From sequence record NC_070985.1: a stretch of DNA of 64,000 nt; one strand, written 5' to 3'. Source of the DNA: Escherichia phage O18-011. Of this stretch, positions 55,375-63,834 are shown piece by piece; positions within the stretch are counted from its first letter, which is position 1, and each line of letters begins with the position of its first letter. The position numbers were made by a program, and so were the translations under genes. The notes below the pieces were generated by a model. It made no database searches, had not been told where the DNA came from, and worked only from the letters and a program-made list of their open reading frames with translations.

Positions 55375-56574
55375 ATGTTTCCAGTAACATTAGAAGATAC
55401 TGAAGGTAATGTTTTAACGGTACACCCTCCTTGTTATGGGTTCCTTCAGCTTCGCAACTATAATGGTGGCGTTGATGAAGATGATGACGAATATGATGAC
55501 TACTTCGACCCTAACATGTATGAGGCAACTCATGGGTGGAATATGCACGTTCGAGTGTGGAGTGAAGAAGCTAACGTTCGTAGTGCTGATGGGGAAGAGT
55601 TCCTGTTAAGCCGAGAGATGGATATGTGTAAAATCAAGCATATCTGGAACTCCGGAACTCACATGAAGATGTTAGGTTTTAGACGCTGGCGTGATGGAAA
55701 GCACGTAGCTGAAGCTTTAAGTTGGTGTTCGTATGAAGATGAAGACACACCTCCTAAGAATAACATTGATCGTTGGAACAGTAAAAACCCTGAATATCGA
55801 ACTACACCTCGTGCTGTACTGGAAGCTATGGAAGCATTTGTGGACAAAGATCGTCCCTCCTGTTTACGCTGGCACGAAAAAGGTTTCATGGGTGTAGCAA
55901 CTGAGAACGTTCCTGCTGATCGTTGTCTGTTCTATTTGATGTTAGATCGAACCTTCTATTGTGAAGATGAAGAGAGCCAAGTGGAAACCTTCCTTCATAA
56001 GTGGTTGGTTGAAGGCTGGACAATCCTTCAGGCTTATGTTTACTCACGAATGGTTAGCACTTACACTAACCTCTTGGGTGAAACGAAAGCTACTCTGGTT
56101 GGTAATGATTGGGATGCTTGTATCTTCCCAGCGTCACTGTTTACAGTTGGTATGGCTGATAAGTATTCTGAAGCATTCCAAGTACCTTGGCGTCAACAGT
56201 CATATAGGGATGGGTGTGGTCATTTCCGTGATGAAGACTTTAAGTGGATTCATTACGAGAATGATGAAACAGCAGAATTACGAGTTAATAACTCGATGTT
56301 CTTGCCGGTGATGCACCCTGATCTAGTAGAGAGTGAATCAGAAATCCTGAAATGTGACAACCTTCTGATCAACTTTACTCGTCGCGTGTCTAAAAATGAG
56401 AGAACAGCTAACAGATTAATCTACGGCATTCGTGCTGAGGCTAAAGACCTGTTCAACATCTACAACATTGTTCAGCGATTTAGTAGTGGAACTCTGGACC
56501 AAAGTTCGGAGTATTCAGTGATTCCGTCCTCTGAGTGGGATGGTGTTATGAGCGGATTATTTTTAGGAAAATAA
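55375..56574 (+). CDS. hypothetical protein, first gene of amidoligase operon
   Basis: ORF track; SD GAGG; packed tightly with downstream genes. Confidence 0.5.
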   Translation: MFPVTLEDTEGNVLTVHPPCYGFLQLRNYNGGVDEDDDEYDDYFDPNMYEATHGWNMHVRVWSEEANVRSADGEEFLLSREMDMCKIKHIWNSGTHMKMLGFRRWRDGKHVAEALSWCSYEDEDTPPKNNIDRWNSKNPEYRTTPRAVLEAMEAFVDKDRPSCLRWHEKGFMGVATENVPADRCLFYLMLDRTFYCEDEESQVETFLHKWLVEGWTILQAYVYSRMVSTYTNLLGETKATLVGNDWDACIFPASLFTVGMADKYSEAFQVPWRQQSYRDGCGHFRDEDFKWIHYENDETAELRVNNSMFLPVMHPDLVESESEILKCDNLLINFTRRVSKNERTANRLIYGIRAEAKDLFNIYNIVQRFSSGTLDQSSEYSVIPSSEWDGVMSGLFLGK

Positions 56575-56584
56575 AAGGTTAGTT

Positions 56585-57556
56585 ATGTCAATCTCCACAA
56601 CGATCGTACCTCTGAATCTTCAACAAGATTTAGGGGAACAGAAGTTCTTAGGTCGTGGGTGCTTCGGTATCCACAACTATATGCAAGGCCAATGCGTAAA
56701 TGATATTAATGGCGAAGTTATCACGGAAGAAGGGCGTTATAGACGTTTCAACCGTGATATCAACTTGCAATTGGAGATGTTGAATTACTGGACTCACTCT
56801 TTTCATGGTCATGTTGCATCTGATATTGAAAAGAACTTGGTTGAAACAGCAGACATTATGAACTCCATGTCTTGCTATCGTGATATATTTACAATCACTT
56901 CAGCGAATAGTGTTGCTGTCAACCTCCGTGAGCATCCAGCAGATCAAATCTTCACAGGACTTATGCTTTTCCGTAGTATTCTGGAAGGGCAGTATCGTGG
57001 AATGGATTTCCTAGCAGAAGGAATTGAAGACAGGGAAGAGTGGCTGAAGCGTAAACGCATCGGCATCGCTCTAGTGTTAGCTGGGTTGGGTCGTGACTTC
57101 TTCGGTGGGTGGTCTCAACGAGGAATAGCCAATGGGAGCAGCGAGAGCACCTCTATTGTCGTTAATAAAAATATGTCAGCAGCAGCATTCCTTCCTTTGG
57201 TTGTAGACTCTGATGAATACACGAAACAAGTATGGGTTCAAAACCCCTTCGGTGTTGGTGACAACAAGGACGGTTATGTTCGTAACCATAACCAAGATGC
57301 CTTACGAAGATTTGCTCGTGCTAAAGATCAAGACCCGGACGAGTATGAAACAATGTCAGAGTGGTTAAGACTCTGGTCCAACTGTCATGGTCACAAACGT
57401 GAAGCAATAGATGATAAGTTGGAAAACATTACAGTACAAAACTTTACAGCCCGACTAATTCAGCGTACTGGCCCAAGCTCTGGCCTTACTACTGAAGAAG
57501 TTGGTAACACAATCTCATCTCTCTTTTCTGAATTAGTGGAGTATTACAATGACTAA
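56585..57556 (+). CDS. hypothetical protein in amidoligase operon
   Basis: ORF track; overlaps next gene by 8 nt. Confidence 0.5.
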   Translation: MSISTTIVPLNLQQDLGEQKFLGRGCFGIHNYMQGQCVNDINGEVITEEGRYRRFNRDINLQLEMLNYWTHSFHGHVASDIEKNLVETADIMNSMSCYRDIFTITSANSVAVNLREHPADQIFTGLMLFRSILEGQYRGMDFLAEGIEDREEWLKRKRIGIALVLAGLGRDFFGGWSQRGIANGSSESTSIVVNKNMSAAAFLPLVVDSDEYTKQVWVQNPFGVGDNKDGYVRNHNQDALRRFARAKDQDPDEYETMSEWLRLWSNCHGHKREAIDDKLENITVQNFTARLIQRTGPSSGLTTEEVGNTISSLFSELVEYYND

Positions 57557-58355
57557 GCGCGCTTTCCTTATTGGCTCTGACCCTGAAATGTTCGTTCGTA
57601 CCAGCAATGGTATTATCACCTCTGTAGCTGGTTTGTTAGGTTGTTCTAAGGACGATAAGATCGCTCTGGCTAAGGATGTTCGTCTTCAAGAGGACAACGT
57701 ACTGGCTGAGTTTGATATTGACCCACAGAGCGGCTTTGAAGCGTTTAACGATAACATGCAACGTGGTATTGATCTCACCAACAATGTTCTGAACAAACTG
57801 GACATGGAAACAGCTCCGGGTATTAGCTCTCACATCTTCACCGAAGAAGAGATGAAGACTTTCAATGAATCAGCGTTCATCTTCGGATGTACTCCTGATT
57901 TCAACGCTTTCACTGGTCAGAAGAACCCATCCCCGACTTCTCAGAATAAGGGACTTCGTACTGCCGGTGGTCACGTACATCTTGGCGTAGTTGGTGCTTT
58001 GGATATCACTTTGCAAACTCAGATGATGCTGGGTGTGCTGTGTGACTACTTCCTGTCCCTCCCAGCAGTTATTATGGATAAAGATACTCGCCGTAAAGAA
58101 CTCTACGGTAAAGCGTCTGCAATCCGTTATAAAGACTATGGTATCGAATACCGTTCACTGTCTAACTTCTGGATTAGCGATCGTGAAAACCGTAAGTTTG
58201 TTTACGATCAGGTTGACAAAGTTGTTCAGCAGTGTGATATGTCCACTCTGATGGCATTGCACTCTCGCCTTCCGATTGAGAAGCTTCATGAAATCATTAA
58301 CGGCAACAACGTTAAAGAAGCGGACCAGCAGATCAAACTCCTTCAGGTAGCATAA
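57549..58355 (+). CDS. possible second carboxylate-amine ligase
   Basis: GSDPEMFV near N-terminus and GGHVHLGV later; tentative similarity to glutamine-synthetase-fold amidoligases, by eye. Confidence 0.35.
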   Translation: MTKRAFLIGSDPEMFVRTSNGIITSVAGLLGCSKDDKIALAKDVRLQEDNVLAEFDIDPQSGFEAFNDNMQRGIDLTNNVLNKLDMETAPGISSHIFTEEEMKTFNESAFIFGCTPDFNAFTGQKNPSPTSQNKGLRTAGGHVHLGVVGALDITLQTQMMLGVLCDYFLSLPAVIMDKDTRRKELYGKASAIRYKDYGIEYRSLSNFWISDRENRKFVYDQVDKVVQQCDMSTLMALHSRLPIEKLHEIINGNNVKEADQQIKLLQVA

Positions 58356-62430: not shown

Positions 62431-62635
62431 GAAACCAAAGATCACTCTCCTACAGTATTACATAGGAGTTCATATCGAATTAGTAACGGAGCAGCGAAAG
62501 CTGTATCCGTTCGCTTTCGGTCTGATTGATGCACCATCCGATGAAGTAGAGAACGATGCGTTCAATGACTACTTCGAAATTGAAGCTCAGATTCAAAAAA
62601 CTCGTAACGAAATTCTTAAACTTAAAGGTATCTAA
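62411..62635 (+). CDS. hypothetical small acidic protein
   Basis: ORF track; overlaps previous gene by 20 nt. Confidence 0.4.
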   Translation: MSNLVPKKPKITLLQYYIGVHIELVTEQRKLYPFAFGLIDAPSDEVENDAFNDYFEIEAQIQKTRNEILKLKGI

Positions 62636-62637
62636 CA

Positions 62638-63834
62638 ATGACTACTCGTATCCGTGTTCTTCCTTATGGCCCTTCTGATTCAGTTCGTGAACTTACTTCT
62701 GCAATTAACACTAAGATTCAGGAACTCCGCTTAAATGCTAACGTAATGTCTCTGGTATCAGAGGGTTCTCGTTATCGTTCTCGGGTTGGTGATATTGTTG
62801 TCAACTACGGAAACCGTCGATACAATGATGCTTTCTTCGGTGGTGCAACTGTGTTGAACTCTGTGATTGCCTTGAACCGAGCGGCTAATAAGGTTACAGC
62901 ATTTCAAACTTTGGAAGCTGCTGGGGTATCTACTGTAGAGTATACTGTAAGTCAGAGTGTGGCTTCAGATTGGAACCAGGATGATATCATTTATGAGCGT
63001 GGAATCCTAAATGGGCACTCCGGTGAAGGTATTACTGTTCGTCTTCCAGCGGAAGGTATTTCCCGTGCCCCACTGTATACGAAAGGTATTTCAGGCCCAC
63101 GTCGTGAATGGCGTGTTCATGTGTTTGAGGGTGTTATCACTTACGTTCAGAAGAAAATTCGTCGTAACGGTTATCGTGAACTGGAAAGCTATCGTGAAGA
63201 TATTCGTAACCATCATACTGGTTGGGTTTATTCTAACTCCTTCACTGAAGCCCCTCCTGATCAAGTTCTGATTCAAGCTCACAAAGCTGTATCCGCTCTG
63301 GGTTTGAACTTCGGTGCTGTTGACCTGATTAGCAAAGGTACTAACGCTTGGGTTCTGGAAGTCAATACAGCTCCGGGACTGACTGGAACAACTCTGGAAA
63401 CCTATACTCACAATATTGTTGAGTTTGTTAAGAGCTTCTCTGGTGTTGATCCTGACTACCGCGTTGCTTACGAACTGCCTGTTGAAGAAGTGGAAGAAGA
63501 ATTTGCTGAATCGGCAGATGACGAAAACTTTGCATTGGCAGCTGAGCCAGTTGCTGAAGAGTCTTCGGAACCTGTTCCTGAAACAATGCAAGTTGAAGAA
63601 CAAGGGTTAGAGATCAACCCGGTAACCCGTCGTAATCTGCGTCGTGGTTATTATATCGCTAACATCAAGCATCCTGAAAACGGCTCGACTGTAGCAAGTA
63701 ACGTAATTGTTTTCTTCTGTGGTCGTAACTTCTACCGCTCTGGATGGAACGCACCAATTAGCGATCGTCAGCTTGGTCGTGTGTTGCAGATTAATAGTAT
63801 TACCCTGAATGATGGTACTGTTGTAAACTACTAA
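62638..63834 (+). CDS. ATP-grasp ligase (RimK-like) with acidic linker and C-terminal extra domain
   Basis: KAVSALGLNFGAVDLISKGTNAWVLEVNTAPGL matches the ATP-grasp C-terminal motif; REWRVHVF upstream. Confidence 0.6.
   Translation: MTTRIRVLPYGPSDSVRELTSAINTKIQELRLNANVMSLVSEGSRYRSRVGDIVVNYGNRRYNDAFFGGATVLNSVIALNRAANKVTAFQTLEAAGVSTVEYTVSQSVASDWNQDDIIYERGILNGHSGEGITVRLPAEGISRAPLYTKGISGPRREWRVHVFEGVITYVQKKIRRNGYRELESYREDIRNHHTGWVYSNSFTEAPPDQVLIQAHKAVSALGLNFGAVDLISKGTNAWVLEVNTAPGLTGTTLETYTHNIVEFVKSFSGVDPDYRVAYELPVEEVEEEFAESADDENFALAAEPVAEESSEPVPETMQVEEQGLEINPVTRRNLRRGYYIANIKHPENGSTVASNVIVFFCGRNFYRSGWNAPISDRQLGRVLQINSITLNDGTVVNY

Follow-up and report, generated by a model that had tools for sequence, protein, structure and literature searches.

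The phiEco32-type amidoligase cassette of Escherichia phage O18-011: a conserved five-gene core and a possible glutamate-centred pathway

Phages related to phiEco32 carry a cassette of predicted amide-bond-forming enzymes, the phiEco32-type amidoligase cassette, which was reportedly predicted by Iyer, Abhiman, Burroughs and Aravind (2009, Mol Biosyst). They are said to have proposed that it makes unusual peptide linkages in peptidoglycan precursors or the envelope, excluding superinfecting phages, and Hardies et al. (2013) reportedly found the cassette in phage RIO-1. Later authors have used the term 'peptidoglycan modification cassette', possibly blocking superinfection, without test (PMC5498523; PMC10580990; PMC11318856), and others have read its members, also without test, as nitrogen auxiliary metabolic genes (AMGs) (PMC10945688; PMC11706807). 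Here we analysed a stretch of 64,000 nt of Escherichia phage O18-011 (record NC_070985.1; hereafter the window), in which such a cassette lies at positions 55375-63834 on the + strand. The window belongs to a Kuravirus (phiEco32-like, Gordonclarkvirinae) coliphage and aligns along its entire length with over 60 sequenced genomes at 95-96% identity. The cassette is thus already known as a prediction, being the founding example of PF14395. We found no experimental paper on its function in the literature, which offered speculation only; this agrees with a first reading of the DNA made from its letters alone (the sequence-only reading), which held that comparative genomics had predicted such systems without a demonstrated substrate or product. 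The reading that we favour, at somewhat less than even confidence, is that the cassette is an early, virus-specific pathway in which amide bonds containing glutamate are first formed and later trimmed, yielding a metabolite-level product for host takeover.

Cassette genes and predicted enzymes

The window holds nine tightly packed + strand open reading frames (ORFs) in this interval, one fewer than the ten counted in the sequence-only reading, whose ORF coordinates and strand placements we confirmed. Four junctions are overlaps and the others are 1-11 nt apart, except for a 79-nt gap before the gene for the class-II glutamine amidotransferase (GATase; Ntn, N-terminal nucleophile). The features are as follows.

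55375-56574, + strand: o1, 399 aa, in slot 1 upstream of ligase 2; putative new family, acidic low-complexity insert, invariant N-terminus MFPV...PPCYGF
56585-57556, + strand: o2, 323 aa, in slot 2; putative o1 paralog with invariant C26-F-G, D120, R130, E187, Q219 and G230-Y-x-R233
57549-58355, + strand: COOH-NH2 ligase type 2 (ligase 2), 268 aa; PF14395, PHROG 3815
58365-58982, + strand: o4, 205 aa; PHROG 4877
58979-60082, + strand: Amidoligase_2 enzyme (amidoligase), 367 aa; PF12224, variable C-terminal extension
60088-60110, + strand: hairpin GTGCC-(11 nt)-GGCAC, read from sequence, in the 79-nt gap upstream of the GATase ribosome-binding site
60162-62192, + strand: class-II (Ntn) GATase, 676 aa; ATT start, Cys1 at 60165-60167, Shine-Dalgarno AGGTGG at 60147-60152
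61479-61706, + strand: Cys-rich modules 1 and 2 of the GATase (CxxC...C...C and CxxC...CxxC), aa ~440-515
62082-62174, + strand: Cys-rich module 3 of the GATase, aa ~641-671
62197-62430, + strand: DUF7195 small basic protein, 77 aa; PF23825, 4.7e-17
62411-62635, + strand: o8, 74 aa; PHROG 13464, 6e-48
62638-63834, + strand: RimK-like ATP-grasp ligase, 398 aa; ATP-grasp aa 1-~270, acidic linker, C-terminal domain aa 317-398 (63586-63831)

Every cassette ORF was recognised as a phage family by PHROGs, and none of the nine proteins matched the PADLOC defence and anti-defence models. Ligase 2 matched PF14395 in Pfam (COOH-NH2_lig, in full 'Phage phiEco32-like COOH.NH2 ligase-type 2'; 34 bits vs. 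a cut-off of 25, 2.4e-8) and PHROG 3815 (9e-118). D49, E54, H142, H144, E200 and R202 are invariant in an alignment of seven lineages, and the protein is predicted to be an ATP-dependent carboxylate-amine ligase. The amidoligase matched PF12224 (Amidoligase_2; 33.8 bits vs. 22, 4.2e-8), keeps E31, E33, E35, R54, E58, H95, H97, R130, E186 and R188 invariant, and is a predicted glutamine-synthetase/GCS-like carboxylate-amine ligase. Both matches lie above the gathering thresholds and bear out the amidoligase and the possible second ligase of the sequence-only reading. When the amidoligase was compared with E. coli YbdK by hhalign, the signature motifs alone aligned (GSIEFR with GTVEVR, GGHVHLG with GQHVHVG), with poor statistics, and profile searches of the PDB with the two ligases returned no match.

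The third putative ligase gave sub-threshold matches in Pfam (16.1 and 17.7 bits vs. cut-offs of 21 and 24 for RimK and Dala_Dala_lig_C) and matched several NCBIfam models, namely rimK_fam (1.6e-8; 34 bits vs. a cut-off of 143), MptN (5e-8), the RimK equivalog (1e-5; 25 bits vs. 331) and Ddl (1.2e-5), which place it nearer to RimK and MptN than to Ddl or GshB. All of these models match aa 214-253, the region of the Mg-ATP motif D...E-x-N, which is present as GAVDLISKGTNAWVLEVNTAPG in the translation (D...LEVNTAPG). The protein also matches PHROG 2599 (1e-186), and its last 82 aa correspond to PHROG 20552, a domain that also exists stand-alone. We therefore regard it as a probable ATP-grasp-like ligase that is not a RimK ortholog, and the RimK-family matches, the motif and the PHROG 20552 tail agree with the earlier description of an ATP-grasp ligase with an extra C-terminal domain. 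In the profile check that this reading had proposed, the amidoligase, ligase 2 and the GATase scored above their Pfam thresholds and the ATP-grasp protein below them.

The GATase matched GATase_6 (55 bits vs. 27, 1.1e-14) and also GATase_7 in Pfam. Beyond its catalytic domain (roughly aa 1-230) the protein continues with a beta-rich middle domain, the acidic linker DDDIPFD and three CxxC...CxxC modules, as expected from the earlier call of an Ntn amidotransferase fused to a Cys-rich region. The reading frame runs TAG, AAA, ATT (60162), TGT (60165)-GGC-ATC, giving C-G-I-V-L-A-G-G, with AGGTGG ten bases upstream of the ATT and the in-frame TAG two codons upstream, and related phage GATases all read M-C-G at the N-terminus. 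The automatic ORF list instead starts the gene at ATG 60240 and so loses the catalytic Cys. Given the ATT codon, the Shine-Dalgarno sequence and the Cys that follows at 60165, the start at 60162 proposed in the sequence-only reading is correct. RefSeq NJ01 (locus L001, 14423-16111) and SU10 gp85 (63.8 kDa) carry a truncated 563-aa GATase that starts ~113 codons late and so also lacks the catalytic Cys, and the BASEL annotation gives the full-length protein. The public label 'L-glutamine-D-fructose-6-phosphate aminotransferase' is wrong, as the SIS domain is absent.

We also read the codon before the GATase Cys in 79 of the related viral loci described below and found ATG in 65, ATT in 12 (including L011-L014, L018, L033, L055, L060, L069, L074 and L084) and CTG in one (L052), with one unreadable. 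Kuravirus and no fewer than five unrelated metagenomic lineages use ATT; a Shine-Dalgarno sequence precedes it in every case, and almost all of these loci lack an alternative start codon in the stretch from the upstream stop to the Cys. This recurrence across independent lineages suggests selection for weak GATase translation. In an alignment of E. coli GlmS with seven phage homologs, the equivalents of Cys1, R73, T76, N98, G99 and D123 are invariant in the GATases, which therefore keep the full set of residues for binding glutamine or a gamma-glutamyl-X substrate whose alpha-amine and alpha-carboxylate are both free. No Pfam or NCBIfam family matched aa 230-676, so no SIS, phosphoribosyltransferase, Asn synthetase or FMN acceptor domain was recognised there, and a sequence search with the C-terminal region returned close relatives only. 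The Cys columns are invariant across Kuravirus, SE131, Vp_R1 and LAh_9, and module 3 repeats the T-K-x-W...C-x2-C-x3-I-x-W-x2-A motif of module 1.

Sequence and profile searches with o1, o2 and o4 found no PDB relative and no Pfam or NCBIfam match. AlphaFold models of o1 (pLDDT 87.7, pTM 0.88) and o2 (pLDDT 89, pTM 0.89) were confident; the only long structural alignments of the o2 model were with Dop and PafA (161-165 residues), which are not convincing relatives, and a Foldseek search of viral models with o1 matched both upstream-slot proteins of GAP52 and LAh_8. Profile-profile comparison linked the Grimontviridae slot-2 proteins to o2 (93.8%, E 1.7e-7), the slot-1 proteins to o1 (57%, E 1e-4) and the two slots to each other (95%, E 3.6e-8), and o1 and o2 are therefore probably distant paralogs of one new family without a solved relative. 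They share C-[YF]-G near the N-terminus, PAD[RK]...M..R and W.Q...G[HY].R[DN]. Kinship of o1 or o2 with the two ligases was rejected, direct hhalign comparison giving no similarity.

The stop codon of o4 overlaps the amidoligase start (ATGA), and o4 aligns with a metagenomic cluster (hhalign, 98.3%). We nominate o4 and the o1/o2 family as the specificity-determining components of the cassette. Of the four ORFs described earlier as lacking recognisable motifs, one has a family after all, the DUF7195 protein, which several lineages retain immediately before the ATP-grasp gene, has homologs in SE131, LAh_9, Vp_R1 and PSA13 and occurs in 18/80 loci. Its alignment (R-K-V-P-M-T...LR...IPFP...I...L) resembles that of a small DNA-binding protein of ribbon-helix-helix-like type, so that it may be a regulator rather than a substrate. 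No homolog of o8 was found outside Kuravirus in the loci examined. We looked among the small ORFs for a LysW-like or Pup-like carrier and rejected this idea, as the C-termini (...KSGS and ...KLKGI) are not conserved and lack an acidic or Gln/Glu end.

Conservation, apparent confinement to viruses and genomic context

A tblastn search with the amidoligase returned 303 phage records from Kuravirus, Grimontviridae, Lahexavirus, Bruynoghevirus (LUZ24-like), Zobellviridae and others. We further counted cassette components with local hidden Markov models (HMMs) in 80 related viral loci from an IMG/VR scan. The amidoligase was present in 80/80 loci, o4 in 79 (with a broadened HMM), ligase 2 and the GATase in 78 each and the ATP-grasp ligase in 75. 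These counts, with all genes on one strand, define a five-gene core of ligase 2, o4, amidoligase, GATase and ATP-grasp ligase, in which o4 is a previously unremarked universal member. The genes keep one strand and a fixed order in at least five phage lineages, and annotated regions show no departure from this order and place the cassette immediately before the primase/helicase and DNA polymerase genes. Because ligase 2, the GATase and the ATP-grasp ligase co-occur with the amidoligase on the same strand, the grouping is not due to chance.

The slot upstream of ligase 2 varies. In 35/80 loci it holds a Peptidase_C26/class-I GATase (PF07722, 5e-20; hereafter C26), and C26 and the o1/o2 family never occur together. 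This sharing of one slot without co-occurrence suggests that they may be functionally equivalent. The two upstream-slot proteins of Bruynoghevirus (~320 aa) showed no link to o1/o2 or C26. Just upstream of Bruynoghevirus cassettes lies an SPFH/Band 7 protein (PF01145, 1.7e-21; PSA13, locus L003, 3680-4504). In SE131 (Moazamivirus, L002, 102-2665) and LAh_9 (Lahexavirus, L004, 15130-18268), genes for a ribose-phosphate pyrophosphokinase and a nicotinamide/nicotinate phosphoribosyltransferase adjoin the cassette; these two may serve to reconstitute NAD+, and the Kuravirus window has neither.

We also scanned 100,044 prokaryotic species, one genome each, with two ligase 2 peptide patterns, by which divergent relatives would be missed. 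The 17 loci found were all phage-sized or short contigs of metagenome-assembled genomes (MAGs) bearing the cassette, or tiny scaffolds of one isolate assembly. Within the limit of this two-pattern scan, the cassette appears confined to viruses and not to be a borrowed host pathway, and a cellular origin or context was rejected on the finding of phage-like contigs only. Kuravirus-like cassette fragments with 48-99% identity to ligase 2 were seen on tiny scaffolds of the actinobacterial isolate assembly of Herbiconiux daphne (L093, L094 and L098) and in a Peptococcaceae (Firmicutes) MAG (L092); these are most likely phage contamination or mis-binning and do not reveal real hosts.

The + strand unit that holds the cassette begins at about 42 kb and continues past the window end at 64000, which lies 166 nt beyond the ATP-grasp gene. 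In the relatives NJ01 and Bas93, three small genes follow and then an AIG2-type gamma-glutamyl cyclotransferase (PF06094, 1.6e-17 and 3.6e-20), about 0.7 kb past the position of the window end. This cyclotransferase is probably a further member of the cassette, and we found it in 38/71 loci with enough downstream sequence. Beyond it lie genes for a primase/helicase, an exonuclease, a nucleotidyltransferase, dCTP deaminase, a Dps-like protein, thioredoxin, the thymidylate synthase ThyX (PF02511, 9e-44; not a ThyA-like dUMP hydroxymethylase) and DNA polymerase. Positions 1-10 kb of the window are the far end of this same module. Three Bas93 annotations (L009) in this context look mislabelled: the 'DNA ligase' at 10360-10716 is a 118-aa Nlig-Ia NAD-binding domain only, the 'GTP-binding domain' protein at 930-1322 has a YspA/SLOG-type match below cut-off (25.7 vs. 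28.2 bits), and the 'dNMP kinase' at 406-933 matches DUF3310 only.

Promoter and terminator scans within the cassette found nothing above chance. The hairpin at 60088-60110 was not called as a terminator and could be a candidate processing or translational-control element. Upstream of the cassette, terminator-like GC hairpins with T runs lie at 53009-53028 and 54802-54819 (+); the latter sits 30 nt before a 54-aa hydrophobic ORF (54834-54998), which is followed by a 120-aa ORF (55001-55363) directly before o1. The motif TAATGTATA, which presumably resembles the promoter element for the phage-encoded sigma factor of phiEco32, occurs exactly at 848(+), 7060(-), 7132(+), 17091(-) and 34117(-), with no copy in 42-64 kb; with one mismatch allowed it occurs 17 times in the window against 20 expected, which is not above chance. 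In SU10, the cassette genes were assigned to the sigma-70 early class, and mass spectrometry (MS) of a crude phage preparation detected the ATP-grasp ligase, the GATase, the cyclotransferase and a 23.3-kDa protein (PMC4281155); the predicted mass of o4 is likewise 23.3 kDa.

Candidate functions

In the favoured glutamate-centred pathway, the three ligases would each use ATP to turn a carboxylate into an acyl-phosphate for coupling to an amine, and would jointly build a short gamma-glutamyl-linked, glutamate-containing conjugate on an acceptor amine or carboxylate. Cys1 of the GATase would either pass ammonia from glutamine to the adjacent amidoligase, yielding a carboxamide, or hydrolyse a gamma-glutamyl-X intermediate. 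The cyclotransferase, and C26 or possibly o1/o2, would strip gamma-glutamyl groups as 5-oxoproline or glutamate. Class-II GATases, C26 and the cyclotransferase share a requirement for a glutamyl alpha-amine that bears no substituent. The simplest intermediate common to them would therefore be gamma-Glu-NH-R, with gamma-glutamylation serving as a transient handle or protecting group in the style of the Puu, ergothioneine and butirosin pathways. The best matches of the ATP-grasp protein include small-molecule glutamate ligases such as MptN, which offers a parallel at the metabolite level. Our analysis narrows the likely chemistry to amide bonds of gamma-glutamyl or glutamine type whose glutamyl alpha-amine is free. 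The amino-acid-derived conjugate proposed in the sequence-only reading fits the enzyme chemistry, but its wording is so general that it could hardly fail, and none of our results points to a particular acceptor.

Several observations weigh against this pathway. Every one of its mechanistic steps is inferred, the glutamine-synthetase-like fold of the two ligases is supported at motif level only, and the ATP-grasp matches fall below all curated Pfam and NCBIfam cut-offs. No tailoring enzyme of the kind expected of a protecting-group pathway, such as an oxidase or decarboxylase, was recognised in the cassette, and the cyclotransferase is absent from about half of the related loci. Furthermore, the Zn-ribbon-like modules of the GATase and the extra domains or acidic linkers of the ATP-grasp ligase, amidoligase and o1 look more like modules for binding macromolecules or partners than like segments of soluble metabolic enzymes.

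These last features would suit protein tagging or polyglutamylation, the strongest of the alternatives and a possible though less probable one, in which Glu or a peptide tag would be placed on a protein of the host or the phage, for instance ribosomal protein S6, RNA polymerase or o4, and the GATase, cyclotransferase and C26 would act as erasers or isopeptide recyclers. Such a system would take over the host in the manner of pupylation or RimK. The Zn-ribbon-like modules and extra domains would then serve macromolecule recognition, the ATP-grasp ligase is closest to the RimK family, and the o2 model aligns with Dop and PafA. The universal o4, translationally coupled to the amidoligase and without an evident catalytic signature, is also consistent with tagging, as is early expression, which is seen with other host-modifying phage enzymes. 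AIG2-type cyclotransferases, moreover, act on gamma-glutamyl-amines such as epsilon-(gamma-glutamyl)-lysine. However, no Pup-like or LysW-like small protein was found, nor a Pup-type tag together with PafA/Dop, and the free alpha-amine needed by the GATase, C26 and cyclotransferase is a misfit with alpha-linked polyglutamate tails. The very diverse hosts of cassette-bearing phages disfavour a single specific host protein as the target.

The published cell-wall idea, that unusual peptide linkages in peptidoglycan precursors or the envelope exclude superinfecting phages, seems unlikely. The peptidoglycan stem does offer parallels in its gamma-linked glutamate, its Ddl-like ATP-grasp enzyme and its amidation by an amidotransferase, and early expression would suit superinfection exclusion. 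Yet no cassette protein matched Mur ligases, MurT/GatD or AsnB-type amidotransferases in Pfam and NCBIfam, the affinity of the ATP-grasp ligase for RimK/MptN over Ddl points elsewhere, and all products appear cytoplasmic. These phages are also strictly lytic with short cycles, and remodelling of the sacculus against competitors would be slow.

Gordonclarkvirinae were found in BASEL-2 to be strikingly resistant to restriction-modification (RM) systems, with no known mechanism (PMC11990801). They withstand systems of the EcoRI, EcoRV, EcoKI and EcoP1 types, and no pathway recognised as DNA-modifying or anti-restriction is encoded. Within the window, EcoRI (17), EcoRV (29), EcoKI (10) and EcoP1 (82) sites are not depleted; because they are plentiful, site loss fails to explain the resistance, and we rejected site avoidance as its cause for these four systems. 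An amino-acid-derived group on phage DNA or RNA would account for the resistance, and the position of the cassette, always just upstream of the primase/helicase and DNA polymerase genes, as well as the amidoligase and GATase Pfam matches that accompany thymidine-hypermodification genes in some viral contigs (PMC8989533), is in keeping with it. We nevertheless consider such a nucleic-acid modification improbable. GATC (139 vs. 296 expected), CTGCAG (1 vs. 16.7), GAGCTC (0 vs. 9.5) and CCWGG (5 sites) are strongly avoided in the window, which implies that some nucleases, at least, do reach the DNA; a number of GC-rich 6-mer palindromes are missing as well. BamHI cuts the DNA of a cassette-bearing Bruynoghevirus (PMC8540360), and an amide could form only on a base bearing a carboxylate or a good amine, for which no precursor pathway is present. 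By annotation and selected Pfam scans, neither the ORFs of the window nor the annotated Bas93 genome includes a dUMP hydroxymethylase, 5-HMUDK or aGPT-Pplase, and deazaguanine genes are likewise lacking. With these defining enzymes not found and ThyX as the synthase of the annotated relatives, thymidine hypermodification was rejected. The sequence-only reading had likewise called this route unsupported, from the window alone, an argument that was partly an edge artefact because the transcription unit continues past 64000. It is a long shot that the cassette is the missing factor in RM resistance, whether by a new amide-linked mark on nucleic acid or by inactivation of host nucleases through a product or a protein modification.

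In a reading as auxiliary metabolism or scavenging, the hydrolases would break down host glutathione, glutathionylspermidine and the like, as ChaC/GGCT-type and C26 enzymes do with gamma-glutamyl and glutathione-like substrates, and the ligases would re-route nitrogen or amino acids for phage synthesis. This is the least probable reading despite the AMG interpretations in PMC10945688 and PMC5498523. The ATP spent by three ligases sits badly with scavenging, ligase 2 and o4 appear to lack counterparts in cells and so not to represent a borrowed host pathway, and the growth-promotion evidence of PMC10945688 is indirect.

Here the cassette accounts for about 8.5 kb of a 77-kb genome; in podophages that have it, with genomes of 43-46 kb, its share reaches up to 15%. 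Identifying its product would add a new phage-directed chemistry, be it a metabolite, a protein tag or a nucleic-acid mark, and could perhaps account for the resistance to restriction seen in Kuraviruses, a group under development for therapy. The cassette is experimentally tractable, because E. coli K-12 carrying a restored O-antigen supports growth of the BASEL Kuraviruses.

Comparison with known systems

Thymidine-hypermodification clusters, reportedly described by Lee et al. in 2018 and 2021, are also phage-encoded, lie next to replication genes and sometimes include amidoligase and GATase Pfam matches. Pupylation (PafA, Dop) and the RimK glutamylation of S6 pair glutamine-synthetase-fold enzymes and a RimK-type ATP-grasp enzyme with protein glutamate carboxylates, a possible parallel to the cassette, which however has no Pup-like tag, proteasome or S6 context genes. 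The glutathione system (GshA, GshB and ChaC/GGCT) is built on the trio of folds predicted for the cassette, namely carboxylate-amine ligase, ATP-grasp and gamma-glutamyl cyclotransferase, and some database records label phage cassette genes GCL-like or glutathione synthase. It differs in that the cassette ATP-grasp ligase is nearer to RimK/MptN than to GshB, two ligases and a GATase are present, and the YbdK match is at motif level.

The Puu pathway (PuuA with the C26 enzyme PuuD), ergothioneine synthesis (EgtA/EgtC) and butirosin synthesis (BtrJ/BtrG) each pair a ligase for gamma-glutamyl-amine bonds, of GS/GCL fold or of the ATP-grasp type, with a remover, as is predicted for the cassette. 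The removers in pathways of this type are Cys hydrolases (C26 or Ntn class-II GATase-like) or gamma-glutamyl cyclotransferases, and the cassette GATase has a weak NCBIfam match to EgtC. In contrast to these pathways, the cassette has no oxidase, aldehyde dehydrogenase, methyltransferase or carrier protein, and the window itself has no C26; its likeness to PuuA, EgtA and BtrJ concerns pathway logic and not family membership.

The closest system remains the phiEco32-type cassette itself. It is the same system, with composition and order shared with RIO-1, CW02, LUZ24-like and 7-11-like phages, and the window holds nothing different in kind. To its earlier description our analysis adds o4 as a universal component, the probable o1/o2 paralogy, the mutual exclusion of C26 and o1/o2 from one slot, the ATT start of the GATase and the apparent confinement to viruses.

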